64,000 bases of DNA from an uncultured Candidatus Saccharibacteria bacterium (GTDB lineage: Bacteria; Patescibacteriota; Minisyncoccia; Phycocordibacterales; UBA2100). The number at the start of each line of letters is the position of its first letter. The first letter of the stretch is position 1. The notes below the pieces were generated by a model. It was not told the origin of the DNA, did no database searches, and was given only the letters and a program-made list of their open reading frames with translations. The DNA is taken from contig CAYNRJ010000001.1 of the NCBI GenBank assembly GCA_964399865.1, positions 2,315 to 66,314 of the forward strand, read 5' to 3'. The position numbers were made by a program, and so were the translations under genes. Positions 8,061-61,194 of the stretch are shown here, piece after piece.

Positions 8061-9401
8061 ATGGCATACCGAACAAACACTATAGCGATCGGTATTATGC
8101 TGGGACTATTTTTTCTGTTTTCTTCCGTTTCTCTTGCGGATGAATTTACTTCCGGTGATTATAAAATAGTCGATCCCGTCATCGTGCCGTCGGGATTCGC
8201 GACGTCTTCTAGCTTTCAGTTGTGGAGCACCATCTCTGAATTAGCAACAGGAACAAGCACGGCGACAACGTTTTCTCTAAGTTCCGGATTTCTTACATTC
8301 CCATTCGTCTCTACCCCGGTAGTTTCTGCAACTGCTGGTGACGCTCAAGTATCAATTTCGTGGAGCGCTTCGGAAGGATTCCTCGGATGGAGTATATCGG
8401 GGTATGACATCGCTCGGGCCACGGTTTCTGGCGGTCCATACACATACTCAGATGTTGGAAATGTTCTTAGTAGTACAAGAACCGGCCTCACTAATGGGAC
8501 CACGTACTATTTTGTTGTCGTTCCGAAGGATATATTTGGGAATAGAATCGCCACTTCGACAGAAGTATCCGCGACGCCGGTTGCATCAAGTGGGGGCGGA
8601 GGTGGTGGTGGAGGAGGTGGTGGCGGGGGCGGTGGAGGAGGCGGTGGAGCAGCAGCGCCGTCCGGTGCGAATGTATTCTTTTCAGGACGCGCGTATCCTG
8701 GAAGTACCGTAGTTCTCCTTAAGGACGCGCAGGTGGCCGCTACAACTGTTGCAGGAGCAGATGCGAAATTCCAAATCGCCCTCGGAGGGCTTTCAACCGG
8801 GAACTTTATATTCTCAATGTATGGTGAAGATAAAGCTGGCAATCGCTCCTCGCTCCTGTCGTTTCCGGTGAGCGTAACAGCCAATGTGTTTACGAATGTC
8901 GGTGGTATTTTCATTTCACCATCGATTACAACTGACAAGGCTGAGGTGAGAAAAGGAGACAATATAGCAATCTTCGGACAATCATCGCCAAAGTCAGACA
9001 TAGTCATCGCGGTGAACTCTGAAGAAGAATTATTCGCGCAGGTAAAGGCGGATGATAGTGGAGCGTATCTCCTAAATTTTGACACATCGGTTCTCGAGAT
9101 GGGAAGTCACACAGCAAAATCAAAGGCGGCATTGGCAGGGGAGATAAGTACATACAGCAAAGCTGCCGCGTTTACCGTAGGAACAAAAAATGTGGTTGCT
9201 CTCGTTACTACGAAGAAAGCCACAAAGGGTGACGCAAGTGGAGACGGAAAAGTGAACCTCGTAGATTTTTCAGTTGCTGCCTATTGGTATAAACGCCCGC
9301 TCACCCCAGCCTTTAGGGAAATCGAGAAGACGATGCTCAACGGCGACGGACAAGTAACACTCGCTGACTTCTCCATCATAGCCTATCACTGGGGAGGATG
9401 A
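8061..9401 (+). CDS. Secreted dockerin-containing protein: signal peptide, FN3 domain, 20-residue poly-Gly linker, two Ig-like / CarboxypepD_reg-like domains, C-terminal type I dockerin (two Ca-binding F-hand repeats).
   Basis: FN3 signature (QVSISWSAS…LTNGTTYYFVV). Dockerin repeats GDASGDGKVNLVDFSVAAYWY and LNGDGQVTLADFSIIAYHW at the C-terminus. Confidence 0.7.
   Translation: MAYRTNTIAIGIMLGLFFLFSSVSLADEFTSGDYKIVDPVIVPSGFATSSSFQLWSTISELATGTSTATTFSLSSGFLTFPFVSTPVVSATAGDAQVSISWSASEGFLGWSISGYDIARATVSGGPYTYSDVGNVLSSTRTGLTNGTTYYFVVVPKDIFGNRIATSTEVSATPVASSGGGGGGGGGGGGGGGGGGGAAAPSGANVFFSGRAYPGSTVVLLKDAQVAATTVAGADAKFQIALGGLSTGNFIFSMYGEDKAGNRSSLLSFPVSVTANVFTNVGGIFISPSITTDKAEVRKGDNIAIFGQSSPKSDIVIAVNSEEELFAQVKADDSGAYLLNFDTSVLEMGSHTAKSKAALAGEISTYSKAAAFTVGTKNVVALVTTKKATKGDASGDGKVNLVDFSVAAYWYKRPLTPAFREIEKTMLNGDGQVTLADFSIIAYHWGG
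8592..8651 (+). repeat. GGN trinucleotide tract encoding 20 consecutive glycines (low-complexity, slippage-prone coding repeat).
   Basis: ggg ggc gga ggt ggt ggt gga gga ggt ggt ggc ggg ggc ggt gga gga ggc ggt gga read directly; translates to G20 inside the dockerin-protein ORF. Confidence 0.9.
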
Positions 9402-10324
9402 TATTGAGTATGCAGATAACAACAAAAAAAATTAGTATGTACGGATTGCTCTCTCTGCTCGTTGGCGTTTTGTACGTCTTAAGTATGACGGATGTTTACG
9501 CAGCAGAAATCATCGCTAGAACTCCGTCCGGAGTCGGCGTGGGAGATGCATTTACTGTCTCGGTTTTGCTCGACACAGAAGATGAGCGCATCAATGCTTT
9601 AGAGGGAACTCTCCAGTACACACGCTCTACACTCGTGCTCCGAGAATTGCGCACGGGTAATTCGATCGTTAATTTCTGGGTTGAGCAACCTAGTATAGAT
9701 AAACCTGGGTCCGTACGCTTTGCAGGGGTAACTCCGGGAGGCTTTCATGGAAATGAGGGAGAGATCTTTACTCTCGTATTTGAAGCGGTTAAAAGCGGTC
9801 GGGCGGAGATATCTCTTCAAGATGGAAAAGCGTATAGAAATACTGACGATGGAATTGCCTTCCCGCTCGTAGCTCGCATCCCCGCGTTTGCAATTAGCGA
9901 AAAGGGAGGAGGGATGTCGGTGCAGTCAATTTTAGAAACTGACAAGACACCACCTGAGTCCTTTACTCCCATGATTGCCACGGATCAATCTCTTTTTGAG
10001 GGGCGATCATTTATCGTTTTTGCAACGCAAGATAAAGGATCAAGTGTCGATCATTATGAAGTAGCAGAGCGCAAAGGATTTCCGTTTGCCCTCTTACGAA
10101 AAATGGTTTGGCAAAAAGCGGTGAGCCCGTTCGTGCTCTCTGATCAGTCGCGTATGTCATATGTATACGTGAAAGCTGTCGACAAAGCGGGAAATGAGCG
10201 CATCGCGCGGTTATCCCCTTCGCATCAATTTTTCTACTTTAGTAACACAGCGCTTATCGCTATACTTCTTGTATTGTTCGGCTCGGTGTTACTTTTTTAT
10301 GTACGAAAACGCAAGATTCGGTAG
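9398..10324 (+). CDS. Type I membrane protein with an extracellular cohesin-like domain (signal peptide, cohesin, C-terminal TM anchor); start ATGA-overlaps the upstream stop.
   Basis: AEIIARTPSGVGVGDAFTVSVLLDTEDERINALEGTLQYTRSTLVL…GSVRFAGVTPGG…EIFTLVFEAVKSGRAEISL matches the cohesin pattern. C-terminal hydrophobic helix ALIAILLVLFGSVLLFYV followed by RKRKIR. Confidence 0.6.
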   Translation: MILSMQITTKKISMYGLLSLLVGVLYVLSMTDVYAAEIIARTPSGVGVGDAFTVSVLLDTEDERINALEGTLQYTRSTLVLRELRTGNSIVNFWVEQPSIDKPGSVRFAGVTPGGFHGNEGEIFTLVFEAVKSGRAEISLQDGKAYRNTDDGIAFPLVARIPAFAISEKGGGMSVQSILETDKTPPESFTPMIATDQSLFEGRSFIVFATQDKGSSVDHYEVAERKGFPFALLRKMVWQKAVSPFVLSDQSRMSYVYVKAVDKAGNERIARLSPSHQFFYFSNTALIAILLVLFGSVLLFYVRKRKIR

Positions 10325-11513
10325 GCTGTTAGGGTATGTAAGCATAGGATTTGTCGCGAGCCTATGTTTTTTTATATCTGCAGGGGTGACACACGCTGCG
10401 ACTCTCTCGCTTTCACCATCATCCGGCTCATATTCGGCCGGAGATACTCTGACAGTATCAATCCTAGTTTCGAGTACGGATCAAGCCATCAATGCTGCGT
10501 CTGGTACCATACATTTTCCCGAAGATGTATTGCAGGTACTCTCCATCTCTAAAGCGAATTCAATTTTGACCCTATGGGTACAAGAGCCTTCCTTTTCCAA
10601 TACTTCTGGCACGGTAGATTTTGCCGGCGTAGTGCCCAATCCAGGCTATACCGGTAGTGGAGGTAATCTCATAACCGTACGCTTCCGTGCTCGTTCTCCG
10701 GGTACTGCAAACCTTACAATTTCACCTGCCGAGACGCTTGCAAACGACGGCAGCGGCACGAATGTATTAGCCGGTGCTTCTGGTGCAACGATCACGATTA
10801 CTTCGGCAAAGGCAACCATACAAGATTCACAAAGGCCACCTGCTGAAGATCTGGAGGAATCGGCAGAGGAAGTTGAGTCTGACACCGGTATACAACCACC
10901 GATTATAACGAGCTCAACGAAACGTGTCCCCCTCGGAGGGGCAGCTGAAGTAACAGGTTCTTCTATTTATCCTGGTGCTACGGCGGAGCTTACACTTCAG
11001 GGTTCTGGCGGTATTATTCTCACGGTTAACGGTTCCGTCGGAGAGAACGGGGTATTTTCTCTAACCCAACAGCATTCCATAATTCCAGGTGAGTACATTG
11101 GATCAGTGGTTGTCCATCAGGGCAATGCCCAAAGCTCTCCCTCTGAGCCGTTCGTCATAACGTTTGAAGGGGAGCCATTCCTTTCAAAAGCGCTCGATTT
11201 TCTGATGCAGCCGATGCTTCTTATCACGTATGGCTTTATAGCGGCATTCGGGATAGGACTTGTGCTCGGCAGATACTTCTTTAGGTCGAAAAAACTTACC
11301 GTGAACGATGCCCTCTATGATGTAGATGTTGAGGTGCATAAATCGTTCCTCAAGCTTCGCGAACGTATTAATCAGTCAATTGCAGAATTACAGCGAGAGA
11401 GTGAAAATCGTGAACTCACCGATGCGGAAGCGCGATTCATTAAGCAAATGACGGGAACCATTAAAGATACCGAGAAGGCAGTCGAGAAAGATATACACCA
11501 GGCCGAGCATTAA
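10299..11513 (+). CDS. Second cohesin-domain type I membrane protein (signal peptide, cohesin, Ig-like region, TM, charged coiled-coil cytoplasmic tail). Start chosen at ATG 10299 (MYENARFGRLLGYV…); the ORF track extends upstream to 10194.
   Basis: AATLSLSPSSGSYSAGDTLTVSILVSSTDQAINAASGTIHFPEDVLQVLSISKANS…GTVDFAGVVPNPGYTGSGGNLITVRFRARSPGTANLTI is paralogous to the upstream cohesin. TM LLITYGFIAAFGIGLVLG; C-terminal E/K-rich tail. Confidence 0.6.
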   Translation: MYENARFGRLLGYVSIGFVASLCFFISAGVTHAATLSLSPSSGSYSAGDTLTVSILVSSTDQAINAASGTIHFPEDVLQVLSISKANSILTLWVQEPSFSNTSGTVDFAGVVPNPGYTGSGGNLITVRFRARSPGTANLTISPAETLANDGSGTNVLAGASGATITITSAKATIQDSQRPPAEDLEESAEEVESDTGIQPPIITSSTKRVPLGGAAEVTGSSIYPGATAELTLQGSGGIILTVNGSVGENGVFSLTQQHSIIPGEYIGSVVVHQGNAQSSPSEPFVITFEGEPFLSKALDFLMQPMLLITYGFIAAFGIGLVLGRYFFRSKKLTVNDALYDVDVEVHKSFLKLRERINQSIAELQRESENRELTDAEARFIKQMTGTIKDTEKAVEKDIHQAEH

Positions 11514-14871: not shown

Positions 14872-14898
14872 CCACAACACAGTGTGGGGGATTTTTTG
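14872..14898 (+). terminator. Hairpin (ccacaacac…gtgtgg) plus a T6 run; it terminates the upstream operon and overlaps the ORF-track GTG start at 14884, which argues for the downstream ATG start of the GH18 gene.
   Basis: ccacaacacagtgtgggggattttttg. Confidence 0.4.
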
Positions 14899-14931
14899 TA
14901 TGATTTTCGCGACTGGTTCGTCGTATATACT

Positions 14932-16389
14932 ATGAGTAACATGAAAACGCAGGTATTACGTGGTTTTGTAGCGGCGATGGCGGTAGTTCTTGCTACTCCG
15001 CAAGCGGTTTTTGCACAGACAGCGCCTTTTGAGGTTTCGGGTTGGATACCGTATTGGCGAGCTGATAAGGGTGTAGAAAGTATCCTTCCGCACCTAGGGA
15101 AATTCACGGAAGTGAATCCTTTCGTCTATACCGTAAAACAAGATGGCTCGTTATTTCTCCCCGAACCTTTGGATACAGGTGCATGGGCCACGCTTCGTGC
15201 GAAATCAAAAGAGCTGAATGTACGATTCATGCCGACAGTGATGTGGGCGAACGCGGACGCAATCCACGACGTTCTTAGTAACCCCGAGAAGCGTGCTGAA
15301 CACATCCGCGGCATTGTAAGTCAGGTGTATGGCCGAGGATTTGAAGGTATCGATATCGATTATGAAGGCAAATACGCCAAAACTCGTCCATACTTTTCCC
15401 TGTTCTTGAAAGAACTTAGTACCGCGATGGGCTTCGATAAATGGATCATGTGTACGATAGAAGCGCGCACACCGCTTGACTCGCGTTACTCGTCACCGGA
15501 ATCTATTCCAAAGGACATTGAATATGCGAACGATTTTGTGGAGATAAACAAGTACTGTGATCAGGTGCGCGTTATGGCGTATGACCAGGGTAGGTATGAC
15601 TTGAAACTTAATGATGCGAACACTGATCCGTACATACCGGTCGCCGACAGTAAGTGGGTTGAGAAAGTGATGCGACTGACGATGCAAGATATTGATAAAA
15701 ATAAACTCCTTATCGGTGTTGCAACATATGGATATGAATACGATATGTTCCCCTCGACAGACGGCAGCGGAGATATGTCTTACTCTCGCTTGTGGTCGTT
15801 CAATCCCGGATATGTCGCAGAAACCGCAACAAAAACAGGTATTGCTCCTATACGTAATTCCGCCGGTGAAATGTCACTCGTATATCCTGCGTCTCAGTCT
15901 GTAGATCCCGCCATACCGCTCCCGAACGCCACACGTGTCATGACATGGAGCGATGCGGAAGCCATTCGTCAAAAAGCTGAGCTTGCAAAAACGCTCGGAC
16001 TTGCCGGTATCGCGATATTTAAAATTGACGGAGGACAAGATCCAAAACTCTGGGATGTGCTTGCGAGCTATAAGGGGGACACCTCAAATGCGAGCGCAGT
16101 TCGCACGGCGCCATCGCCTGCAAGCGGGCTTATTGCATCGTCACTTATTGTGCCAGCAGTCGATCTTCAGTTTGGCGCGCGACGAGAAGAGGTGCGAGCT
16201 CTCCAAAAAATCCTCAATGCCAGTGGGCATATTATAGCGACGACAGGCGGTGGGTCACCTGGTAACGAAACCACATACTTTGGACCTGCGACACGAGCTG
16301 CACTTATCAAATTCCAGAAGGCAAAAAATATTACCCCTGCTGTCGGATACTTTGGTCCAAAAACTCGCGCAGCCTTTGCCTCGCTCTAA
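14932..16389 (+). CDS. Secreted GH18 (chitinase-like) glycoside hydrolase with a C-terminal peptidoglycan-binding (PG_binding_1-like) domain.
   Basis: Signal peptide MSNMKTQVLRGFVAAMAVVLATPQAVFAQ. GH18 catalytic motif FEGIDIDYEG (DxxDxDxE). C-terminal LQKILNASGHI…TYFGPATRAALIKFQKAKNI…GYFGPKTRAAF. Confidence 0.7.
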   Translation: MSNMKTQVLRGFVAAMAVVLATPQAVFAQTAPFEVSGWIPYWRADKGVESILPHLGKFTEVNPFVYTVKQDGSLFLPEPLDTGAWATLRAKSKELNVRFMPTVMWANADAIHDVLSNPEKRAEHIRGIVSQVYGRGFEGIDIDYEGKYAKTRPYFSLFLKELSTAMGFDKWIMCTIEARTPLDSRYSSPESIPKDIEYANDFVEINKYCDQVRVMAYDQGRYDLKLNDANTDPYIPVADSKWVEKVMRLTMQDIDKNKLLIGVATYGYEYDMFPSTDGSGDMSYSRLWSFNPGYVAETATKTGIAPIRNSAGEMSLVYPASQSVDPAIPLPNATRVMTWSDAEAIRQKAELAKTLGLAGIAIFKIDGGQDPKLWDVLASYKGDTSNASAVRTAPSPASGLIASSLIVPAVDLQFGARREEVRALQKILNASGHIIATTGGGSPGNETTYFGPATRAALIKFQKAKNITPAVGYFGPKTRAAFASL

Positions 16390-16445: not shown

Positions 16446-17645
16446 ATGGATCTAGAGAAGGCCGCACACGAAGTATTTTTGAAAAATCGACGGAATATAA
16501 ACGGCCATCACTACACTCTTCCTTCCTCTGATCACTACCCGTATCAATGGCTTTGGGATTCTTGCTTTCATGCAATTGTACTCGCGCGCACAGAGCCGCA
16601 GATAGCACGGGAAGAAATACAGGCACTTCTATCACGCCAATTCGAGAACGGACTTGTTCCACACATTATCTATTGGACTCCAGGCATCCTTCATCTGTTT
16701 AGGTGGGGGACTGAAGGCACGAGCTCACTTACGCAGCCCCCGATGCTCGCGTACGCGGTATGGGAAATACATACGAAATCTCCCGATATGCCCTTCTTGG
16801 AGTCGGTGTTCCCAGCACTTCTCCGCTACTATAAATTCCTGTTAACGGAACGCGATCCGCGCGGGCATCACCTGGCGGGAATTATTAACCCTGACGAATC
16901 TGGCGAGGATAATTCGCCGCGCTTTGATGAGCCTCTTGGGGCAGGCCCGGATATATCTCTCGATGATCATCTCCAAAAACGGCATGAGCTCGTGGATGAG
17001 AATCGTGTCTGTAAATTTGATGCCGCGACCTGCATGCGATATCACTTCTGGGTCAAAGACGTTCTATTTAATACGGTCTTGGTAGAGAATTTGAGAGCCC
17101 TGGCACGAATTGCTTCTGCGCTCAATCGCGAGGACGAGGCACACTTACTTTATAAAGACGCCAATAGTGTGGCGGCAGCGATGCGCGAGCATATGTTTGA
17201 AGATGGCGTGTACTGGTCCACGAGCGGCGCTGACTTTAAAAAACTTAAAGTGAATACCTGGTCACATTTTGTTCCGATGTTTGCGGGGCTGTACTCAAAG
17301 GAAGAGGCGGAGGATGTTATGCGTACACATTTTCGTAATGACAATACTTTCAAGGCGTCCTTTGGTATTCGTACTGTATCAAAACAGGAACAATCCTACC
17401 GTTCCTCGTCCGCTGTCGATGATTTTTCTTGGCGGGGACCCATATGGTTCGCATCACAGTGGTTTATTTACAAAGGTCTCCAGCGGTACGGATACATTGA
17501 AGATGCTGCATGGATACGGGAAACAAGTATTCGGTTATTGGAGAAATCTGGGTTTCGGGAATGTTTTAACCCGGACACTGGAGTCGGGTATGGTGCACGG
17601 CACTTCACATGGGGTGCATTAATCCTTGATATGATGGAGGAATGA
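16446..17645 (+). CDS. Six-hairpin (alpha/alpha)6 glycoside hydrolase (GH63/GH37/GH15-superfamily-like; possibly a trehalase or mannosylglycerate-hydrolase-type enzyme).
   Basis: HYPYQWLWDSCFHAIVL motif near the N-terminus, typical of (alpha/alpha)6-barrel glycosidases; sits in a sugar-metabolism cluster. Confidence 0.45.
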   Translation: MDLEKAAHEVFLKNRRNINGHHYTLPSSDHYPYQWLWDSCFHAIVLARTEPQIAREEIQALLSRQFENGLVPHIIYWTPGILHLFRWGTEGTSSLTQPPMLAYAVWEIHTKSPDMPFLESVFPALLRYYKFLLTERDPRGHHLAGIINPDESGEDNSPRFDEPLGAGPDISLDDHLQKRHELVDENRVCKFDAATCMRYHFWVKDVLFNTVLVENLRALARIASALNREDEAHLLYKDANSVAAAMREHMFEDGVYWSTSGADFKKLKVNTWSHFVPMFAGLYSKEEAEDVMRTHFRNDNTFKASFGIRTVSKQEQSYRSSSAVDDFSWRGPIWFASQWFIYKGLQRYGYIEDAAWIRETSIRLLEKSGFRECFNPDTGVGYGARHFTWGALILDMMEE

Positions 17646-18442
17646 GTCATATCGCGTTCGATATAGGTGGCACATCTGTGCGAGTCGCTGTCGCGAAGGA
17701 AGATGGATTGGGAGAAGTAAAGAAGCAGCAAACACCGCAATCTCCCCAGGAAGCAGTCGCTCTCATCGCATCCCTTGCTCGCGAACTTTGCGGAGAAGAG
17801 AAAATTGATGCTGCAGCGGGCTGTATTCGCGGCCGCGTCGTCGACGGTGTGTTCCTCAAAGACAAGGGACTTCCAGAATGGGAAGGATTCGAACTTGTAA
17901 AAGAACTATCAAATGCACTCGGTAGCTCAGTGAGTGTCTCTCATGATGCGAGCCTCGCAGCTCTTGGAGAGGCGCGATATGGCGCTGGGGCGGGATCTGA
18001 TATTTGTGTGTTCGTTACGGTTTCGACTGGAGTCGGTGGTGGACGCGTGGTCGCGGGCGAAATGGATCGCACCACTTACAACCCAGAAATCGGGAGACAG
18101 CTTATTAATGGGCAAGAACTCGAGGATCTAGTCTCGGGGAGTGCGGTCCACAAAAAATTTGGCATTCACCCGCGCGAACTGGACTCGGAAGAGGAGCGTA
18201 ACAATCTTGCAGATATTCTTGCGATCGGACTCTACAACACGACGCTCCATTGGTCGCCGGAAACAATCGTTCTGGGAGGTTCAATGATTCTCGGTGTGAA
18301 TCCGATTCCGCTTGAAAGAGTGGAGAAGTCCTTTGTCTCTCGAGTAACAATGTATCCAAAGGCACCGTCCCTTAGAATGGCAAAACTTGGCGATAATGCA
18401 GGCCTGGAAGGTGCCCGCGCCCTACTTTTTAGAGGCAAATAG
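17642..18442 (+). CDS. ROK-family sugar kinase (glucokinase-like).
   Basis: N-terminal IAFDIGGTSVRVAVA motif; ROK-like glycine-rich segments; ATGA overlap with the upstream gene. Confidence 0.65.
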   Translation: MSHIAFDIGGTSVRVAVAKEDGLGEVKKQQTPQSPQEAVALIASLARELCGEEKIDAAAGCIRGRVVDGVFLKDKGLPEWEGFELVKELSNALGSSVSVSHDASLAALGEARYGAGAGSDICVFVTVSTGVGGGRVVAGEMDRTTYNPEIGRQLINGQELEDLVSGSAVHKKFGIHPRELDSEEERNNLADILAIGLYNTTLHWSPETIVLGGSMILGVNPIPLERVEKSFVSRVTMYPKAPSLRMAKLGDNAGLEGARALLFRGK

Positions 18443-18581
18443 TATCCCCGCGTCCATCTTTGAGGAAACCTCGATTTACTGTATAATTGGCTAGTTCTGG
18501 AAATTCGAGAAAAATCCTGATATTTGGCCGTAAAATCCGCCTTTCCCGCATTGAACTGGCAGAAAAAGAGGACAAGCAAAA

Positions 18582-20831
18582 TTGTCCAAAAACGTCCTAA
18601 AAATCACCCCAATGAAGCATATCCTTTTGATAATCGGCGGAGGTATCGTGGTACTGAGCGCGATGACCTTTGTCTTTACGATAACGCAGGTAGAGCAGGA
18701 GCGTGCATCGCTTTCTGCCGATCTTCAATATCGCACACGACTTCTCGCGGACTCACTCAAGGAATCAGTAGAGCCCTCATATCGCGCAGGAATGATGGAA
18801 TCTGTTGAGGCACTCGTCGCGAAATTTACTGACCGCGAACGTCTTGCTGGACTCGCAGTTCTCGATCGTGACGGAGTTATTCTGACGGCGTCTGGAGAAA
18901 TTCCGGAGCCAGTGCAGAGTAATATGCCGCTCGTGACTCGGGCCATGGACTTCAACGCCTCAGAGGGTGAGTTTTTGCGAAGCGGAAGGAGTCATTTCTA
19001 CGTATTTGCTTCACCGCTTAGAGCCAATGAACTACCAGAGGGAGTGCTTCTCGTCATTCAGGACGCAGACTACATTGATAGTGCTGTTCTCAGTATCTTG
19101 TGGAACAACTTTGTTCGTTTTGCGGTGCAGGTGCTGTTCTATTCAGCAGTTGTTCTTCTGATCGTACGCTGGATCATCGTTAAACCACTTTCGCGCCTTG
19201 CAGAATCGGTGAAATCCGTGCGCGCAGGAAAGGGGGGAGCGGATTCTACGCTCGAGCACCCGTTCTTCTTTCAGCCGCTTGCGCACGAAATATTCAAAAT
19301 GTCTAAAAGTCTCACTCAGGCGCGATCTGCTGCGAGCGAGGAGGCGCGTATGCGATTGGAGAAACTCGACACACCTTGGACCGCGGAGCGATTAAAGGAA
19401 TTCGTGAAAGGTCATCTTAAAGATAGACCGATCGTACTCGTCTCAAATCGCGAGCCGTATGTGCACAACAGGGTAAATGGGGAAACGCAGTTCACTGTTC
19501 CTGCGAGCGGTCTAGTTACAGCGCTTGAGCCGGTCATGGAAGCGTGCGGCGGCCTTTGGATAGCGCATGGAAGCGGATCTGCAGATAGAGAAACTGCCGA
19601 TGAGGGCGGCAAGTTACAGGTCCCACCGGAAGAACCACACTACACACTAAAGAGAGTTTGGCTTACGCAAAAGGACATCCAGGGATTTTATACTGGCTTT
19701 TCCAATGAAGCTTTGTGGCCTCTTTGTCACACGGCGCACAATCGCCCCATATTCCGAAAAGAAGACTGGCTCGCGTATCGCCGCGTAAATGGAAAATTCG
19801 CTGAGGCACTCCTCGGCGAGATCAAGAATCTGCAGAATCCGATCATTCTCGTCCAGGATTATCATTTCGCACTCTTGCCGCACATGATCAAGAAAGCGCG
19901 ACCGGATGCGAGCGTCGGTCTTTTCTGGCACATTCCATGGCCGGGTGCCGAAAGTTTTAGTATCTGTCCTTGGAGAAAAGAATTACTCGACGGTATGCTC
20001 GGCGCCGACCTTATCGGCTTCCACACGCAGCAGTACTGCAACAACTTTATGGATACCGTGGGTAAGGAAATTGAAGCTCGTATAGATTTCGAACGATTTG
20101 GCATAAGTCGTGATGGGCATATTTCTCAGATCGAGGCTTTCCCAATTTCGATCGCCTTTACGAATGTGGATGCTCCTCACGACGAGACTGAAAATAAGGG
20201 CGTCTTTAAAAATCTTGGTATCGAGACCGAATTTATTGGTCTGGGTGTAGATCGTCTCGACTACACGAAGGGTATACTTGAGCGCTTTAAGGCGATCGAG
20301 TTCTTCCTTGATGCGCACAGAGATTATGTCGGGAAATTCACCTTCCTTCAGATTTCATCACCCTCAAGAGAAACGTCACAAAAATATCGTGAATACTCAG
20401 AAGAGTGCTCAGAAGCGGCGCAGCGCATCAATGATAAATTCGCAACAGGTGATTGGAAACCGATCGTATTCGAGAAACGACACTTTTCGCATGAGGAGCT
20501 TCGTCCTCTGTATGCGAACGCGGATTTCTGTCTTGTAACCTCCCTTCACGATGGCATGAACCTTGTCGCAAAGGAGTTCGTTGCTGCGCGAAACAATGAG
20601 AGTGGAGTACTTATCCTCAGTCAGTTTGCAGGTGCATCACGTGACCTCAAGGGATCGATCGTCATTAATCCCTATAGTGCCGAGGATGGTGCGGAGGCGA
20701 TCCATTCGGCTCTTACCATGTCACCCACAGAGCAACATCGTCGTATGAAAGCAATGAGAAATATCGTACGCGATAACAACGTCTACCGATGGTCCGCAGA
20801 ATTCCTAAAGACGCTCGCAAACCTCGTGTAA
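18582..20831 (+). CDS. otsA: Fusion protein: N-terminal TM, ~140-aa extracytoplasmic (Cache/PDC-like) domain, TM, HAMP-like linker, then trehalose-6-phosphate synthase (GT20, OtsA).
   Basis: TM1 HILLIIGGGIVVLSAMTFVFTI; TM2 FVRFAVQVLFYSAVVLLIVRWIIV; then IVLVSNREPY…WIAHGSG…LWPLCH…FWHIPWP…GADLIGFHT…, a canonical OtsA. Confidence 0.8.
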   Translation: MSKNVLKITPMKHILLIIGGGIVVLSAMTFVFTITQVEQERASLSADLQYRTRLLADSLKESVEPSYRAGMMESVEALVAKFTDRERLAGLAVLDRDGVILTASGEIPEPVQSNMPLVTRAMDFNASEGEFLRSGRSHFYVFASPLRANELPEGVLLVIQDADYIDSAVLSILWNNFVRFAVQVLFYSAVVLLIVRWIIVKPLSRLAESVKSVRAGKGGADSTLEHPFFFQPLAHEIFKMSKSLTQARSAASEEARMRLEKLDTPWTAERLKEFVKGHLKDRPIVLVSNREPYVHNRVNGETQFTVPASGLVTALEPVMEACGGLWIAHGSGSADRETADEGGKLQVPPEEPHYTLKRVWLTQKDIQGFYTGFSNEALWPLCHTAHNRPIFRKEDWLAYRRVNGKFAEALLGEIKNLQNPIILVQDYHFALLPHMIKKARPDASVGLFWHIPWPGAESFSICPWRKELLDGMLGADLIGFHTQQYCNNFMDTVGKEIEARIDFERFGISRDGHISQIEAFPISIAFTNVDAPHDETENKGVFKNLGIETEFIGLGVDRLDYTKGILERFKAIEFFLDAHRDYVGKFTFLQISSPSRETSQKYREYSEECSEAAQRINDKFATGDWKPIVFEKRHFSHEELRPLYANADFCLVTSLHDGMNLVAKEFVAARNNESGVLILSQFAGASRDLKGSIVINPYSAEDGAEAIHSALTMSPTEQHRRMKAMRNIVRDNNVYRWSAEFLKTLANLV

Positions 20832-20835
20832 TCGC

Positions 20836-21597
20836 ATGAATGAGGATTTTTCTTCCGTACTAGATATCGTTCGCTCCGTGCGGCCGCTACTTCTGCCGCA
20901 CTGGGGAAAGGCGGGGACTGTGGAGTATAAGGAAGCAAACAATCATGGCGCAGTAACGTATTACGATCGTGAGTCGGAGAGGATCCTTTCAACTGCATTA
21001 CGAGAGAAGTATCCCGACATTGGATTTGTAGGGGAAGAGAGCGGTGGGGACAGAACGGTCTCGCGCTTTTGGCTTGCAGACCCGATAGACGGCACAGTCG
21101 CTTTTATCGAAGGAAAGCCGTATTGCACCACGATGCTTGGGCTCATTGAGGAGGGAAAGCAACGGTTAGGAGTTATTTATGATTTCGTTACCGACACTAT
21201 GTATCACGCCGAAAAGGGAAAAGGGGCGTATGAAGAAAATACTCGCATTCATGTGAGCGATCGTATGCCGCCAGACATCCAGCTTGGTGTAGAAACTCAT
21301 GATGGAGAGCTACTGCAAAGAGTTTCTGCCAAGTATCCACTTTTTAAAACCATGACCGCGGGTCACGAATTCGTTCAAGTAGCTAAAGGCGCGATAGAAG
21401 GTCGAGTTTGTTTCAATCCGTTTGGTAAAGACTACGATTTTGCGCCGGGGACATTACTCGTGGCGGAGGCAGGAGGAATTGTCGCAAACATTGGAAAGAA
21501 TACGTACGATTATACAAATTTGAATTTTATAGCAGCGAATAAGCCCGTATATGAGGCTTTAACAAAGGGGTCGGAGGCGATATTTCCGATTGCTTGA
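20836..21597 (+). CDS. Inositol monophosphatase family protein (IMPase/SuhB-like).
   Basis: FWLADPIDGT motif and overall IMPase pattern. Confidence 0.7.
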   Translation: MNEDFSSVLDIVRSVRPLLLPHWGKAGTVEYKEANNHGAVTYYDRESERILSTALREKYPDIGFVGEESGGDRTVSRFWLADPIDGTVAFIEGKPYCTTMLGLIEEGKQRLGVIYDFVTDTMYHAEKGKGAYEENTRIHVSDRMPPDIQLGVETHDGELLQRVSAKYPLFKTMTAGHEFVQVAKGAIEGRVCFNPFGKDYDFAPGTLLVAEAGGIVANIGKNTYDYTNLNFIAANKPVYEALTKGSEAIFPIA

Positions 21598-21615: not shown

Positions 21616-24303
21616 ATGCTCGGAGCATGGCACACAGAGGAGGTCTCAGATATTTTGCACGCGTTAAAGGCCTCTGAAAATGGGCTTAGTACTGAAGAAG
21701 CCTCACGAAGACTTAAAGAATCGGGCCCCAACTCCCTACCTGAAGCAAAGAGCGAGAGTATCGCGCTCCTATTTGTCCGCCAATTCAAGAGTTCCCTCAT
21801 TTACGTTCTCCTGGGCGCAAGCGCAGTCATGTTTCTTATGGGGGAATCCGTTGACGCCCTCATCATCCTCGCGGTCCTTCTTTTCAATGCGATCGTGGGA
21901 GCGATTCAGGAGGGGCGCGCGCAGAATACGCTGCGCGCGCTAAAACATTTCGTCGAAACTAACGCGACCGTGATGCGAGGAAATGTTGAGACAATAATTC
22001 CGGATACAGAAGTTGTCGAAGGCGATAGTATTATCTTGCAGGAAGGAGAGAAAGTGCCTGCGGACGCGCGTCTCATGCTTTCACACTCACTTCGAGTGGA
22101 TGAGGCGGCGCTCACCGGTGAATCAGAGCCTGTCACAAAAACTGCCGCGGTACTCTCGAAAATTGATTTGCCGATCACGGATCAGGACAACATGCTCTTT
22201 AAGGGTACGTATGTAGTTGCGGGAAATGGTAAAGCTGTCGTTGTTGCAACAGGTGAGAGAACAGTGATCGGAAAAATTGCAGAAGAGATATCATCTTCAG
22301 CTGTTGAGATCCCACTTGCCGCAAATATCAGATCTCTTTCTCATCTCATCATTGGCGCCGTACTTGCAATATGCGTTGTACTTTTTTTCTACGGGCTTGC
22401 GGTCGGCTATTCAATATCACTTATGTTTGGCACGGCGGTCGCGATCGCAGTGTCAGCGATTCCCGAGGGACTTCCGATCGTTCTTACTCTCGTCCTCGCA
22501 ACCGGCGTGTGGCGAATGGGTAAACGGAACGCACTTGTGAAGCGTCTGCCTGCCGTCGAAGCACTGGGACAAGCGAGGGTCATCGCGGTCGATAAAACAG
22601 GAACACTTACCAAGAACGAAATAATTGTTGAGAAGTTATACATACACGGAGAAGCAAATGGTAAAGGTGATCTTTTTGATATCTCGGGCGTTGGATACGC
22701 CCCAGAGGGTAATGCATCGATCGGTGGCACCAACACGACTCCCGAAATGCATCATGGACTTGCACGGGCCGGGCGAATCGCAGCACTTTCGGCGAATGCG
22801 CGTGTTTTATATTCGGAGGAACTTTCACGTTGGCGTGTGACTGGGGACCCCACAGAAGCAGCACTTCTTGTATTTGCACAGAAGCTGGGACTTAGTAAAG
22901 AGGATATTGAACGGGGCTCGCCTCTTATCGCGGAATTGCCGTTTGACTCTGCAGTCAAATATCACGCACTCGTACATCGTGATGGAAGAGAGCTTTTCTT
23001 ATCAGTCGTAGGGGCGCCGGAAGTCATTCTTTCGATGTGCAACGCGTCTCTGCAGAACGGTGAGCACAAGCATTTATCGGAAACTGAACGAGCGAAAATC
23101 GAAGAGCAATTCCTACGACTTTCCGAAATGGGTCTCAGAGTAGTCGCGCTAGCTGAGAAAAGGCACATTAAAGAAACCTTGGCCGCTGAGGATGTGGGTG
23201 CGCTCACGTTCGTCGCGCTTGTTGGCATGAAAGACGGACTTCGTCCCGAGGTTCCGGACGCGATGCGAAGAGCGATAGCGGCGGGTATTCGCGTGGTCAT
23301 GATAACCGGCGATCATGCCGTCACCGCGCGAGCCATCGGCAAGGAAGCGGGGATATTTCAGGAGGGGGATGCAGTTCTTACGGGTGAGGAAATGAACGCA
23401 CTGTCGGACAATCAGCTTTCACAAAGGATCGGGAAGGTGAGTGTGTTCGCGCGCATGACTCCGGAGCATAAGCTCCGCATCATCAAAGCGTATCGTTTGC
23501 GCGGAGAAATTATTGCGATGACAGGCGATGGTGTGAACGATGCCCCGTCCCTCGTTGCTGCGGATCTAGGTGTCGCTATGGGTGGTATTGGTACGGAAGT
23601 CGCAAAAGAAGCGTCGGACATTATTCTTCTTGATGATAATTTCGGATCGATCGTTTCCGCCGTTGAGGAAGGAAGAAGTATTTATAAAACACTTAAGAAA
23701 GTGATCCTATATCTTTTCTCTACAAATATTGGTGAGGTGCTCGTGATAACAGGCGCACTTATACTTACCCTCCCACTTCCACTCCTCCCATCGCAGATCA
23801 TTTGGCTCAATTTCGTTACAGATGGTTTTCTTACAGCGGCGCTTGCTATGGAGCCAAAAGAGAAAGGGCTTCTGACGAAAACATTTGAGCGGCCAAAAAA
23901 GTATCTCATTGATGGCCTCATGACGAGGCGGATGGTTCTTATGGCGATTACCATGGCGATCGGCACCCTCGGGCTCTTTGTGTTCTATGTCGATGATATT
24001 GCAAAAGCGCTTACTGTGTCTCTTACAGCGCTCGCGGTATTCCAGTGGTTTAACGCATGGAATGTGCGATCAGAAACGGAATCCGTATTTACAATGAATC
24101 CATTCTCGAATTTGTTTCTCGTGGGTGCGACACTCATTGTTGTCGTCTTGCAGGTTCTCGCAGTCTACACATCATTCCTACAGGGCGTGCTTCACACGGT
24201 GCCGATCTCTCTTTCAGAGTGGGCGCTCATCGTTGGCGTAGCGTTCTCCATTGTTATTGTGGAAGAAGTACGGAAAATCTTTGCAAGACAGCGGGCACTT
24301 TGA
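21616..24303 (+). CDS. Cation-transporting P-type ATPase (type II, Ca2+/Mg2+-like).
   Basis: DKTGTLT phosphorylation motif, TGDGVNDAPSL hinge, about 10 TM segments. Confidence 0.85.
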   Translation: MLGAWHTEEVSDILHALKASENGLSTEEASRRLKESGPNSLPEAKSESIALLFVRQFKSSLIYVLLGASAVMFLMGESVDALIILAVLLFNAIVGAIQEGRAQNTLRALKHFVETNATVMRGNVETIIPDTEVVEGDSIILQEGEKVPADARLMLSHSLRVDEAALTGESEPVTKTAAVLSKIDLPITDQDNMLFKGTYVVAGNGKAVVVATGERTVIGKIAEEISSSAVEIPLAANIRSLSHLIIGAVLAICVVLFFYGLAVGYSISLMFGTAVAIAVSAIPEGLPIVLTLVLATGVWRMGKRNALVKRLPAVEALGQARVIAVDKTGTLTKNEIIVEKLYIHGEANGKGDLFDISGVGYAPEGNASIGGTNTTPEMHHGLARAGRIAALSANARVLYSEELSRWRVTGDPTEAALLVFAQKLGLSKEDIERGSPLIAELPFDSAVKYHALVHRDGRELFLSVVGAPEVILSMCNASLQNGEHKHLSETERAKIEEQFLRLSEMGLRVVALAEKRHIKETLAAEDVGALTFVALVGMKDGLRPEVPDAMRRAIAAGIRVVMITGDHAVTARAIGKEAGIFQEGDAVLTGEEMNALSDNQLSQRIGKVSVFARMTPEHKLRIIKAYRLRGEIIAMTGDGVNDAPSLVAADLGVAMGGIGTEVAKEASDIILLDDNFGSIVSAVEEGRSIYKTLKKVILYLFSTNIGEVLVITGALILTLPLPLLPSQIIWLNFVTDGFLTAALAMEPKEKGLLTKTFERPKKYLIDGLMTRRMVLMAITMAIGTLGLFVFYVDDIAKALTVSLTALAVFQWFNAWNVRSETESVFTMNPFSNLFLVGATLIVVVLQVLAVYTSFLQGVLHTVPISLSEWALIVGVAFSIVIVEEVRKIFARQRAL

Positions 24304-28136: not shown

Positions 28137-28543
28137 AAACAAAAGGAAAAGTGGGGTTAGGGCTTCTAGCAGCAACAGCTACCGCAGCGGGGGTTGCCGC
28201 TGGGTACTATTTTTACGCCAGTAAAAATGCCAAGAAGAATCGTAAAATCGTCTCGAAATGGGCAGTCGATCTAAAAAAAGATGTTATCAAACAGGCAAAG
28301 AAAGTAGGTAGCATAGATCAAGCTACAATCGCGAATATCATAGATAAGGCTTCGGAGACGTATCAGACGGTTAAGAGCGTAGGTCCAGCAGAACTCTCCC
28401 GCGCGACGAAGGAATTGAAAAATAATTGGAAGGAGCTGGTAGATGAGCTTTCCTCAGGAGGAAAGCGGGCCACATCTGCGGTCAAGAAATCAGTCAAAAA
28501 AGCAAAATCGACATCCACGAAAGTTAAGAAGATCACCTCGTAG
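28133..28543 (+). CDS. Lys-rich small membrane-anchored protein (ATGA-coupled to the upstream gene).
   Basis: N-terminal TM (GLGLLAATATAAGVAAGYYFY) and a K-rich helical tail. Confidence 0.3.
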   Translation: MKTKGKVGLGLLAATATAAGVAAGYYFYASKNAKKNRKIVSKWAVDLKKDVIKQAKKVGSIDQATIANIIDKASETYQTVKSVGPAELSRATKELKNNWKELVDELSSGGKRATSAVKKSVKKAKSTSTKVKKITS

Positions 28544-28572
28544 CCCCGCTGACTGCCGGGGTCCGGTTCTTT
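28543..28572 (+). terminator. Rho-independent terminator (gccccg…cggggt followed by ccggttcttt).
   Basis: tagccccgctgactgccggggtccggttcttt. Confidence 0.45.
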
Positions 28573-28592
28573 ACTCATGGTATATTCATGCC

Positions 28593-29315
28593 ATGAATGA
28601 AAAAGCACGCCTGAACTCTAAGGAGATTGAGCGGAGGAGGCGGGCCAAAATGCCGGAAAAAAGTCCGCTAAAGCTTCAGAGAGAAAATGAACAGCTGAAA
28701 GCAGAAAATATTGACCTATCGGCGAATAATGCCGAATTAGAATCTCAGGCTACCCACGACCCACTGACAGGTCTCTTAAATCGACGAGGTTTGGCACAGG
28801 GTTTTAATCAAAATATTCGACTACTCAAACATTCGTTTGGGTATGATCGCGTCGCGTATTTCCTTATCGATGTCGACGATTTTAAGATCTTCAATACGCA
28901 ATTCGGTCAGCCGGGAGGCGACAAGGTACTCGCGAGTATGGGGAAAGTGTTGTCAGAATTATTCAAGCGTCACGGCGAGGACCCCAGAATGATATCTCGA
29001 AGAGGTATTGATGTCGTAGCGCGCCTCGGTGGGGATGAATTTGTGTTTTGTTGCTTGGTGAAAGGTGATGAAGAGGTAGACATAATCGCTGATATGATAA
29101 TTTCTGCAGTGCAAGAAAATGCAACTAAGCTTGCGGGGCTAGAAGGAAGTCCCGATGTAACAGTAAGTATCGGTGTTGGAGCAGTAGATAATTCTTCTCT
29201 AGGCGAAGAAGACGTATATAAAAGAGTCGCCTCCGCACTCTTGGAGGCCAAAGCTGGGGGTAAGAATTCTTTCGTGAACATCGGTCTTGTAGAATCTGAT
29301 GAAATAAAATCATGA
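28593..29315 (+). CDS. GGDEF-domain diguanylate cyclase with only an N-terminal coiled coil (no sensor domain). Start placed at the internal ATG 28593, after the terminator.
   Basis: RLGGDEFVF active-site motif; upstream heptad-like EKSPLKLQRENEQLKAENIDLSANNAELESQ. Confidence 0.75.
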   Translation: MNEKARLNSKEIERRRRAKMPEKSPLKLQRENEQLKAENIDLSANNAELESQATHDPLTGLLNRRGLAQGFNQNIRLLKHSFGYDRVAYFLIDVDDFKIFNTQFGQPGGDKVLASMGKVLSELFKRHGEDPRMISRRGIDVVARLGGDEFVFCCLVKGDEEVDIIADMIISAVQENATKLAGLEGSPDVTVSIGVGAVDNSSLGEEDVYKRVASALLEAKAGGKNSFVNIGLVESDEIKS

Positions 29316-61000: not shown

Positions 61001-61194
61001 TGATTGGCATGATCCCGCTTGCGATATCTAATCCTACCTGGGGACCATTCGCGTTCACGGTCATGTTCGGTCTGGCGTTCGCAATTTGTCTCACACTTGT
61101 ACTCGTCCCGATGATGTTCTATCGCTCAGTGCAGAAGCAGCGGGCTAAGATTGCAAAAAAGACACTCGCTGGTGCAACAAGTGCGACGAATTAA
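58063..61194 (+). CDS. RND-superfamily efflux permease (AcrB/MMPL-like, 12 TM, two large periplasmic loops).
   Basis: 1043 aa; characteristic TM1, large loop, TM2-6 duplicated; GILVDSGIVVTEAIHARM motif. Confidence 0.85.
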   Translation: MVKFWNFFLLRKQFSYVLIAVLLIAGAYSLLNIPKENFPSINIPQAFVTASLPGASAEDMETLVTNKLEAQISGISNIDTITSTSGEGITQIIVQFTGNADTNQSIQDLRDAVARATPNLPSDVTTPQVIKLNFSDQPIVVVSISGNLSPLEFSDLGQEISDELLNISGVSEVSVAGIPKREVNVIVRKERLEQYGLRITDVIGAISGSNAALPAGRISIEGINYNVNFKGGITDPDQLRDIAISTRSGVPIYLRDIAEISDGLAAASTYSRVSLHGKPSEQAITLQVLKQSTGSVQGVANAVKEKIVELQKTSLAGLDVFVPPSTDQGIQVSEQLGSLTETGVITVILVILVLLVTIGWRESLVAALAIPLSFLIAFIGLHFTGNTLNFISLFALILAVGILVDSGIVVTEAIHARMKVFPTAIEAAFAALRDYAWPLVAGTFATIAVFAPLFFISGIVGKFIAGIPYTLIFVLIASIFVALGIVPLIAVMFTKRNPNRMEQMQEEYTSKVTVWYTEKLRAFLGKRRLQKIFLTSLIGLLFVSFTLPMIGLVSVTFFPQDDLDFVYINIKKAEGTVLAQTDLTVRAIEEILYQDEDIESFQTTVGQSSMLTGEGSSGSNQANITINLPEDRKKTSTEVSNDIREKLAVITDADIQVLQPSNGPPAGAPIQIQFVGDNTDELILATEKGKQLLSSLPNVHTITSSTEKNGIEFNLTIDRAKATALGLNTQLIAQTLRAAVNGTKATSITQTNQNIDVVVKMNLNPAYTDPSNTAEATIDSIKNLTIQGPSGPVLLGSILKDSLDMSNATVSHKDKKRIETISAYPNDTTTATAVVAEFQKRSGELNLPSSVTISYGGESESINQSFTEMFIALIAGLVLMFVILVISFNSIRYTLQLLSIVPLALIGVLWGLAVTGQSLSFTSLLGVIGLGGVIINHAIILMDSLIKNLHAEPDKDLLDIVVESSETRFRPIVLTTIATVIGMIPLAISNPTWGPFAFTVMFGLAFAICLTLVLVPMMFYRSVQKQRAKIAKKTLAGATSATN

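Follow-up and report, generated by a model that had tools for sequence, protein, structure and literature searches.

The question raised by this locus, part of a 64-kb stretch of DNA that was analysed as a whole (the window), is why a gene for trehalose-6-phosphate synthase (OtsA) should begin with what resembles a membrane receptor, and whether that receptor sets the activity of the enzyme. The predicted ORF, 18582..20831 on the forward strand, is indeed present. We estimate a probability of about 0.6 that its product is a membrane-embedded sensor-enzyme in a single polypeptide, with catalysis set by an external signal through the linker that joins the two parts. The gene and its components are as follows.

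18460..18487, + strand: promoter-like site (TTGAGG-16-TATAAT) within the 170 nt that separate the ROK kinase gene from sensor-otsA
18612..20831 (stop codon included), + strand: sensor-OtsA gene, 739 aa
18621..18689, + strand: TM helix 1, aa 4-26
18690..19109, + strand: single-Cache (PDC) extracytoplasmic domain, WalK-like, aa 27-166
19110..19184, + strand: TM helix 2, aa 167-191
19185..19316, + strand: HAMP-like unit (helix-connector-helix; membership not secure), aa 192-235
19317..19427, + strand: signalling-helix linker, aa 236-272
19428..20828, + strand: GT20/OtsA catalytic domain with GT-B fold, aa 273-739

The preferred start is the ATG at 18612, which agrees with the family consensus and with a database gene call of 739 aa (P0071) that is 100% identical. 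The alternative TTG at 18582, which has an AAGAGGA Shine-Dalgarno-like motif ∼10 nt upstream, would add 10 cytoplasmic residues, and TM helix 1 is retained with either start. The promoter-like site matches the consensus at 10 of 12 positions, lies upstream of the TM region and is the sole good site of the intergenic region; the evidence for it is weak, as the region contains no more such sites than do shuffled sequences. The first-pass annotation had named a true start near residue 260, just before the GT20 domain, as a finding that would undo the fusion. A scan for ORFs and promoters found neither a stop codon nor a good internal start or promoter ahead of that domain, and the single long ORF is kept in at least 120 independent sequences. 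The internal start is thus not supported, and we rejected it.

The fusion is widespread. At least 120 full-length relatives align at 56-83% identity with 100% coverage, and independent assemblies supply at least 120 distinct sequences with an uninterrupted ORF of ∼735-765 aa, which also occurs at 16 genome loci; a profile of the sensor module matches 396 cluster representatives at E<1e-30. Carriers of the fusion are found among the Kaiser-, Taylor-, Doudna-, Staskawicz- and Magasanik-bacteria; outside the Patescibacteria, it is carried by a rare clade that is GC-rich. A protein search with the N-terminus of a GC-rich member (L017) yielded 17 metagenomic relatives, with no cultured fusion carrier among them. 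All of the relatives are annotated simply as ‘trehalose-6-phosphate synthase’, and full-text literature searches brought up no description of the sensor-OtsA architecture, only general remarks that trehalose synthesis is encoded by some Parcubacteria (PMC5220378, PMC6064768). The sensor cassette also occurs on a second metabolic enzyme, a GCS2-type carboxylate-amine ligase (P0290); when other long proteins matching the sensor profile were scanned for outputs, only GT20 fragments and this single GCS2 case were found. There is no paralogue of the sensor module elsewhere in the 64-kb window.

The C-terminal part of the protein is, as had been claimed, a complete GT20 OtsA domain. The Pfam Glyco_transf_20 match extends from aa 275 to 736, nearly the whole model, with an E value of 6.7e-120 and 401 bits (cut-off 32.5); NCBIfam models, PDB alignments, which include 5jij-family entries, and the predicted structure agree. 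Compared with the residues listed as binding glucose-6-phosphate and UDP-glucose in OtsA (PMC1769515, PMC3441724), the window protein retains 12 of 12 sites: R280, G300, W316, Y360, W369, D416, H440, R548, K553, R586, D647 and E655, equivalent in Escherichia coli to Arg9, Gly22, Trp40, Tyr76, Trp85, Asp130, His154, Arg262, Lys267, Arg300, Asp361 and Glu369. The numbering of Trp40 is ambiguous by one or two positions in the E. coli sequence, and the aligned Trp is invariant. Across 62 relatives, each of these substrate and catalytic residues is either invariant or shows at least 92% conservation. By this measure the domain is catalytically complete and apparently an active trehalose-6-phosphate synthase.

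The N-terminal region is neither disordered nor devoid of membrane helices. Kyte–Doolittle windows mark two hydrophobic helices, at approximately aa 4-26 and 167-192, both of which are long helices in AlphaFold2 models, in agreement with the two TM helices initially proposed. The first is preceded by a short positive tail (MKH), and a K/R-rich N-terminal tail is found across the family. Between the helices, the AlphaFold2 model (pLDDT 82; secondary-structure order H-H-E-E-H-H-E-E-E) contains a PDC fold, in which the 140-aa ectodomain forms a long helix and then a five-stranded sheet with inserted helices (pLDDT ∼80-95). The protein crosses the membrane twice, in an N-in/C-in topology, and its WalK-type single-Cache domain faces outward.

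Profile and fold comparisons confirm the expectation of a Cache/PDC-like ectodomain of ∼140 aa and relate it to that of WalK. The best Foldseek matches are WalK structures (erWalK, E 5e-8, target-normalised TM-score 0.76), and next in rank come KinD, DctB and chemoreceptor Cache domains; the family profile matches the Staphylococcus aureus WalK ectodomain in the PDB (5is1, 4ywz, 7dud) at E values of 9e-6 to 7e-5, and the NCBIfam HK_WalK model covers aa 13-250 (E 2e-4). The window protein itself falls below the Pfam Cache gathering scores (dCache_1 E 0.18, 11.7 bits versus 45), and the Cache_WalK cut-off of 27 is exceeded by some relatives, such as P0056 (31.3 bits) and P0018 (27.6 bits). Across the family, matches at E<1 are obtained to dCache_1 (17/62), sCache_3_2 (8/62) and Cache_WalK (7/62). 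Pairwise identity is 0.44 over the ectodomain and 0.40 over its core, a moderate conservation that would be compatible either with diverse ligands or with a structural role.

Following TM helix 2, the model has two helices joined by a 12-aa connector, and these coincide with a conserved order of elements: Pro192 (54 of 62 sequences), helix AS1, Gly206 (49 of 62), a variable connector, F219-F220 and P222 (all conserved), and helix AS2, in which E226, S233 and L234 are invariant. AS1 is hydrophobic at positions 193, 196, 200 and 203, the connector retains I/L214 as well as F219-F220, and AS2 has hydrophobic residues in heptad register at 223, 227, 230, 234, 237 and 241, a pattern that is unbroken to L252. 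This heptad pattern fits the HAMP-like linker anticipated for this region, yet Pfam HAMP remains below its cut-off (13.2 bits, E 0.11, versus 25; aa 185-236) and reaches E<1 in only 3 of the 62 relatives. When the HAMP-like unit and linker were used as a profile against PDB sequences, no HAMP chain was recovered, only chance-level matches (EXO70 etc., E>0.1). An hhalign comparison with HAMP gave a probability of 86% (P 5e-6, 53 columns), a tentative similarity given a shallow reference profile of five unverified HAMP sequences.

The HAMP-like two-helix unit is followed by a coiled-coil signalling helix that runs straight into the synthase domain. This linker consists of QARsAASEEARMRLEKL, a break at D-T/S-P-W-T and the helix AERLKEFxKAYLKDR, after which the first GT20 strand begins. 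It is near-invariant, with a pairwise identity (0.80 for aa 236-272) higher than that of any other region, including GT20 (0.66), and it lies outside canonical OtsA, as PDB OtsA alignments start at aa 267-274. Confidence in the AlphaFold2 models, which are monomers, is lowest at the hinge (aa 246-251). In the GC-rich clade (L017) the SEEARMRLEKL helix is absent and only a W-T-x-x-R-L motif is kept.

The neighbouring genes bear on both the product of the enzyme and its fate. All of those listed in the first-pass annotation are present, namely GH18, a six-hairpin enzyme, a ROK kinase and an IMPase-family phosphatase, of which three are relevant here.

16446..17645, + strand: GH63/MGH1-like six-hairpin alpha-glycosidase
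17642..18442, + strand: ROK-family sugar kinase, probable glucokinase
20836..21597, + strand: IMPase-family phosphatase, 4 nt downstream of sensor-otsA

Sensor-otsA is normally co-oriented with a trehalose-6-phosphate phosphatase gene that directly follows it: otsB (Pfam Trehalose_PPase) immediately succeeds it at 16 of the 23 independent loci. An IMPase-family gene occupies this slot in 4 of the 23 (the window, L011, L014 and L026), and a search of the 64-kb window gave no OtsB homologue. This positional replacement lends real support to the proposal that the IMPase-family protein substitutes for OtsB, and it makes the protein a candidate trehalose-6-phosphate phosphatase. The ROK kinase, identified by domain matches and also found near sensor-otsA in L012, is probably a glucokinase and as such would supply glucose-6-phosphate. 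The six-hairpin enzyme, a recurrent neighbour (8/23 loci), does belong to the six-hairpin fold family but is less trehalase-like than had been supposed; it scores 253 bits with the MGH1-like model versus 40 bits with Pfam Trehalase, and is nearer to mannosylglycerate/glucosylglycerate hydrolases (PDB 2z07, 5ohc) than to classical trehalases. The GH18 gene, whose product in the window carries a PG-binding domain, is not a conserved neighbour, and for this reason we excluded it from the unit. Rfam and tRNA scans of the window detected one tRNA-Ser only, irrelevant to the fusion.

Could the fusion be an artefact, in which a membrane protein gene has become joined to otsA through a frameshift, a chimeric assembly or a wrongly called start? 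Nothing speaks in its favor beyond the formal ambiguity between the two start codons, and we regard the idea as practically negligible, because full-length relatives with the same uninterrupted ORF are conserved so broadly; moreover, the junction is the region conserved best of all, and the stretch before the GT20 domain is uninterrupted. It is also improbable, if less extremely so, that the product of the GT20 domain is not trehalose-6-phosphate but a related phosphorylated glucoside, such as the glucosylglycerol-phosphate made by GgpS, and that the GH63-type neighbour hydrolyses it. Consistent with such a product, the NCBIfam OtsA equivalog cut-offs are not reached (445 bits versus 564.85 for TIGR02400; 492 versus 634 for NF011071), GgpS also matches (313 bits), the recurrent GH63-type neighbour resembles TTHA0978 and mycobacterial GgH, and the window has an IMPase-family phosphatase in place of OtsB. 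However, the OtsA models score ∼130-180 bits above GgpS, the glucose-6-phosphate-binding residues are all conserved, and the next gene in most loci encodes a Trehalose_PPase; in addition, a TreT-like trehalose synthase gene adjoins in L024, and the neighbour in the GC-rich clade appears, by eye, to resemble a GH15-type glucoamylase/trehalase.

The alternative that demands most discussion is that the N-terminal module is a tether or scaffold, which positions OtsA on the inner side of the membrane and dimerises it there with no control of catalysis by a signal, perhaps so that trehalose is made where the bilayer needs protection or is fed to an exporter or glycolipid pathway. The weak HAMP assignment, the moderate conservation of the ectodomain core and the lack of conserved partner signalling genes near the homologous loci examined would all fit a tether, as would the GT1-family glycosyltransferase gene that adjoins in L022 and the TreT-like gene in L024. 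We nevertheless consider a mere tether unlikely. If anchoring were the only function, a single TM helix would do, and the conserved TM-Cache-TM-HAMP-like unit would be superfluous; moreover, homology of this module to a bona fide sensor extends from end to end. No part of the protein is better conserved than the segment that links membrane and enzyme, and its coiled-coil register is retained, which fits a transmission element rather than a spacer and argues for functional coupling, against a plain membrane tether. We infer that catalysis is under signal-dependent control, which suggests that synthesis of a stress sugar may be switched directly from outside the cell.

A sensor-enzyme of this kind can be set beside several known systems. 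WalK (YycG), the histidine kinase of cell-wall homeostasis in Firmicutes, has the same succession of TM1, a single-Cache domain of ∼140-150 aa and TM2, then a HAMP where sensor-OtsA has its HAMP-like unit; unlike WalK, sensor-OtsA has no PAS, HisKA or HATPase domain and no response regulator, its C-terminal 467 aa are GT20, WalH/WalI-type partner genes were not seen near sensor-otsA, and identity to WalK is ∼13-14%. The protein appears to share the sensor module of WalK but does not belong to the kinase family. WalK's sCache domain is needed if the kinase is to respond to altered cell-wall D,L-endopeptidase activity (PMC7299342). With soluble OtsA/TPS enzymes (E. coli OtsA, fungal Tps1), sensor-OtsA shares the GT-B GT20 fold, the substrate and catalytic residues and the otsA-otsB gene order, and its best family score is to the Bacteroidota-type bifunctional TPS/TPP (NF011071, ahead of TIGR02400). 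In contrast to the canonical enzymes, which are cytoplasmic and begin at the equivalent of aa ∼267-274, it adds ∼270 aa of sensor and linker. Mycobacterial OtsA can be controlled post-translationally via its oligomer interfaces, but there soluble metabolites act on a soluble tetramer and not through a covalent transmembrane sensor.

Single chains that carry a sensor outside the cytoplasm and, behind TM helices and a HAMP or signalling helix, an enzyme as output are familiar from Cache/HAMP receptor enzymes. HAMP-linked class III adenylyl cyclases, GGDEF diguanylate cyclases and the RsbU PP2C phosphatase are all such sensor-to-enzyme chains, and the Cache-like periplasmic domain of Chlamydia RsbU (PDB 6mab) is among our Foldseek structural matches. 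Cache/HAMP receptor modules drive kinases, cyclases, chemoreceptors and phosphatases, but to our knowledge none drives an enzyme of central sugar metabolism. The outputs of the known receptor enzymes produce or remove signalling molecules or phosphoryl marks, whereas that of sensor-OtsA is a glycosyltransferase of primary metabolism, making an osmoprotectant precursor. Sensor-OtsA would be a Cache-HAMP transmitter whose output is new and metabolic.

If the sensor does control the synthase, the protein would act as a dimer, as other Cache/HAMP receptors do. A ligand, or the state of the envelope or cell wall, would act at the Cache domain to move TM helix 2, although we know of no ligand for the WalK ectodomain itself. 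The HAMP-like bundle, together with the invariant signalling helix (aa 236-253), would pass this movement on, by way of the conserved D-x-P-W-T hinge and the helix at 258-269, to the GT-B enzyme's N-terminal lobe. Altered closure of the lobes, or altered pairing of the catalytic domains, would change the rate at which UDP-glucose and glucose-6-phosphate are converted to trehalose-6-phosphate, from which the downstream phosphatase (mostly OtsB; the IMPase-family enzyme in the window) would release free trehalose. The ROK kinase would be the source of glucose-6-phosphate, and the GH63-like hydrolase may recycle sugar. In these very small genomes, direct post-translational control would take the place of transcriptional control of otsBA. 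We know of no precedent for a GT-B glycosyltransferase controlled via a signalling helix, and the last step of transmission is therefore speculative. We put forward only tentatively, at a little under even odds, the specific proposal that a Cache-HAMP-signalling-helix transmitter gates a GT-B enzyme directly across the membrane, such that an extracellular or wall signal sets the rate of trehalose-6-phosphate synthesis with no transcriptional step.

The current annotation, which names the synthase alone, conceals the sensor, and the recurrent exchange of OtsB for an IMPase-family protein predicts a new, non-homologous trehalose-6-phosphate phosphatase. If sensor-OtsA is signal-regulated, it would represent a new output class for bacterial transmembrane signalling, and it would provide a defined system, with a simple sugar-phosphate assay, for the control of a GT-B enzyme by a signalling helix; since the family is large, many orthologues could be used for heterologous expression. 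The fusion of the same cassette to a GCS2-type ligase hints at a family of ‘receptor-enzymes’ that control stress metabolites in genome-reduced Patescibacteria, where the cue might come from the host or from the condition of the cell's own wall. Signal-regulated sensor-OtsA would be one of few tractable handles on what Patescibacteria sense around them.

We find that the open reading frame reported at 18582..20831 (+) is present in the window sequence, and that its 739-aa product, sensor-OtsA, has the complete GT20 domain and the two TM helices claimed in the first-pass annotation. Pfam GT20 spans aa 275-736 (E 6.7e-120; residues counted from ATG 18612), and strongly hydrophobic 19-residue windows are found by hydropathy at ~aa 4-26 and 167-192. 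ATG 18612 is favored as the start by the family consensus (MKQxLLI...) and by database entry P0071, which is identical at 739 aa and comes from a contig as large as 613 kb; the alternative TTG 18582, with an AAGAGGA motif ~10 nt 5′ of the codon, would lengthen the cytoplasmic tail by no more than ten residues. The same layout, listed here after a promoter-like site, is seen in the AlphaFold2 models of the first 274 aa (pLDDT 82) and of the full-length chain (pLDDT 83).

18460-18487: promoter-like site, TTGAGG-16-TATAAT, 5′ of the entire ORF
aa 2-58: helix, TM1 extending into a long membrane-proximal helix
aa 78-151: strands region, following a short helix; five strands plus two inserted helices
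aa 153-204: helix, TM2 plus cytoplasmic helix, followed by a 12-residue connector
aa 218-253 and 258-269: helices separated by a break, then the GT-B fold

The ectodomain had been described as Cache/PDC-like, and its relationship to the WalK sensor kinase bears this out. By itself, the window protein matches Pfam dCache_1 below threshold (E 0.18), but its relatives lie at or near the cut-offs for Cache_WalK, dCache_1, sCache_3_2, ArlS_N and SMP_2, such that the family taken together points consistently to Cache. Indeed, the family profile matches the crystallised S. aureus WalK ectodomain (E 9e-6), and NCBIfam's model for WalK covers aa 13-250 (E 2e-4). The best Foldseek matches of the sensor model are a full-length WalK model (259 columns aligned, E 3e-11) and crystal structures of the WalK ectodomain (target-normalised TM-score 0.76), followed by KinD, DctB and chemoreceptor Cache domains. 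The WalK sCache domain is needed for the response to changed D,L-endopeptidase activity (PMC7299342); by analogy, one may reasonably guess that sensor-OtsA responds to a signal from the cell wall or envelope.

The segment following TM2 has HAMP-type anatomy: P192, heptad hydrophobics at 193/196/200/203 and G206, a variable connector anchored by I/L214 and F219-F220, and then another amphipathic helix whose hydrophobic positions are 223/227/230/234/237/241. The proposed HAMP-like linker thus stands as a description of this anatomy, but formal HAMP membership is not secure. Pfam HAMP scores 13 bits (E 0.11) against a cut-off of 25, a profile of the post-TM2 region matched no HAMP chain in the PDB, and profile-profile comparison with a shallow reference set of five HAMP sequences gave 86% probability. 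We therefore retain the label ‘HAMP-like’.

Gene context was compared across 23 independent loci, including the window. Trehalose_PPase (otsB, PF02358) lies directly 3′ of sensor-otsA in 16 of the 23, an IMPase-family gene in four (the window and loci L011, L014 and L026), and neither in three; a GH63/MGH1-like hydrolase occurs within about two genes in eight.

Window 14884-16389: GH18 domain plus C-terminal peptidoglycan-binding domain (PG_binding_1), one product
Window 16446-17645: GH63/MGH1-like hydrolase, recurrent neighbor
Window 20836-21597; L011 10217-10981; L014 10226-10978; L026 7237-8031: IMPase-family phosphatase, same strand as sensor-otsA

The IMPase-family gene, 2-20 nt 3′ of sensor-otsA, occupies the exact slot of otsB elsewhere, and no OtsB homologue was found within the 64-kb window. 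Its product resembles archaeal and bacterial inositol monophosphatases. The suggestion that it stands in for OtsB is supported by this position at four loci, good positional evidence for non-orthologous replacement by a candidate non-homologous trehalose-6-phosphate phosphatase, though position does not bear on activity. The six-hairpin enzyme is present as the GH63/MGH1-like hydrolase, but the solved proteins nearest to it are T. thermophilus TTHA0978 and the glucosylglycerate hydrolase of mycobacteria rather than GH37 trehalases. The GH18 gene is likewise present, but is not a conserved neighbor across the 23 loci. A ROK kinase adjoins sensor-otsA in the window and L012, and a TreT-like gene does so in L024.

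Other neighbors were also observed. Peptidoglycan-binding domains recur near sensor-otsA in L003, L005 and L011, where the GH18 part is absent. A type II P-type cation ATPase (895 aa) is found at window 21616-24303, L003 5208-7856 and L008 2123-4780, with 57-59% identity between loci, and its presence near sensor-otsA may reflect a connection with ionic or osmotic stress. The window contains a giant ORF (2067 aa, 280-6483) and, a few genes beyond it, ORFs with Big_6 and cohesin domains (8061-11513), while cohesin and dockerin proteins adjoin sensor-otsA in L024; these are probably cell-surface proteins. The window also encodes a 290-aa GGDEF diguanylate-cyclase-domain protein (28443-29315), in an apparently Patescibacteria-type genome, and a full-length AcrB/RND-type transporter (58063-61194, 1043 aa, 603 bits), which seems unusual if the organism is a monoderm Patescibacterium.

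We considered as lesser rivals that the GT20 domain makes a different glucoside and that the fusion is an artefact. With respect to the product, solved OtsA/Tps1 structures align end to end with the GT20 domain (best 6jbi, 272 bits). Using an E. coli OtsA reference checked against PDB 2wtx and published lists of glucose-6-phosphate and UDP-glucose-binding residues (PMC1769515, PMC3441724), we found all listed residues (R280, G300, W316, Y360, W369, D416, H440, R548, K553, R586, D647 and E655), and these twelve are invariant or nearly so among 62 relatives; judged from sequence, the active site is intact. OtsA-type NCBIfam models score 492 and 445 bits, well over glucosylglycerol-phosphate synthase (313 bits), with all three under the strict equivalog cut-offs. 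With respect to the fusion, the N-terminal 274 aa retrieved 70 relatives. Those that carry a taxon name belong to Kaiserbacteria and the Patescibacteria group, and several of the 70 run on into GT20. The full-length query retrieved at least 120 proteins of 729-765 aa (56-83% identity, coverage 96-100%, mostly 100%); the named ones, from Kaiser-, Taylor-, Doudna-, Staskawicz- and Magasanik-bacteria, are annotated solely as ‘trehalose-6-phosphate synthase’. Full-length copies occur in 16 species-representative genomes, and the sensor profile had 396 matches at E<1e-30 among 1.84 billion cluster representatives. We reject an assembly or annotation artefact because the fusion recurs across so many independent sequences and genomes. 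A divergent sensor-OtsA (39% identity) at L017 (2005-4314 of GC-rich contig CALFML010000282.1, binned as Myxococcales) keeps the W-T-x-x-R-L motif without the signalling helix; it lies between otsB and a putative GH15-type glucoamylase/trehalase gene. The architecture therefore occurs outside Patescibacteria, although this clade, with only 17 relatives found, appears rare.

The main rival is that the sensor module is a mere membrane tether or dimerisation device. Mean pairwise identity, computed by region over 62 sequences, is highest in the linker (aa 236-272), above GT20.

TM1: 0.37
Ectodomain: 0.44
TM2: 0.41
HAMP-like helix 1: 0.44
Connector of HAMP-like unit: 0.16
HAMP-like helix 2: 0.57
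Linker aa 236-253: 0.80
Linker aa 254-272: 0.79
GT20: 0.66

Invariant positions include E226, S233, L234, A237, R238, A241, E244, A245, R246, R248, W256, T257, R260, L261, E263 and F264, and the heptad pattern is unbroken from the second HAMP-like helix through L252, where a conserved D-T/S-P-W-T break follows. The linker is specific to the fusion, because canonical OtsA starts only at the equivalent of ~aa 267-274. A segment that transmits a signal would be expected to show such conservation, whereas a passive spacer would hardly account for it.

The domain order, the sensor homology to WalK, the intact active site, the conservation of fusion and linker, and the operon-like phosphatase pairing are established. 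In the signalling mechanism that we propose, sensor-OtsA would assemble as a dimer, the Cache domain would perceive the signal, and this would pass from TM2 via the HAMP-like unit and then the signalling helix into the N-lobe of the GT-B enzyme, thereby modulating the synthesis of trehalose-6-phosphate. Full-text literature searches returned no description of an OtsA joined to a membrane sensor; genome papers go no further than to credit some Parcubacteria with the ability to make trehalose (PMC5220378, PMC6064768). The parts of sensor-OtsA and the receptor-enzyme logic are already known; as far as can be established, what is new is the output, a primary-metabolic GT-B glycosyltransferase. A 690-aa metagenomic protein (P0290; locus L028, 3373-5445) has the TM-Cache-TM-HAMP-like cassette, without the SEEARMRLEKL linker, joined to a GCS2/carboxylate-amine-ligase domain in place of GT20, and matches the sensor profile at E 1.3e-54. 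This single metagenomic sequence, from a 6.9-kb contig, hints that the sensor cassette may have a wider role in the control of metabolic enzymes.
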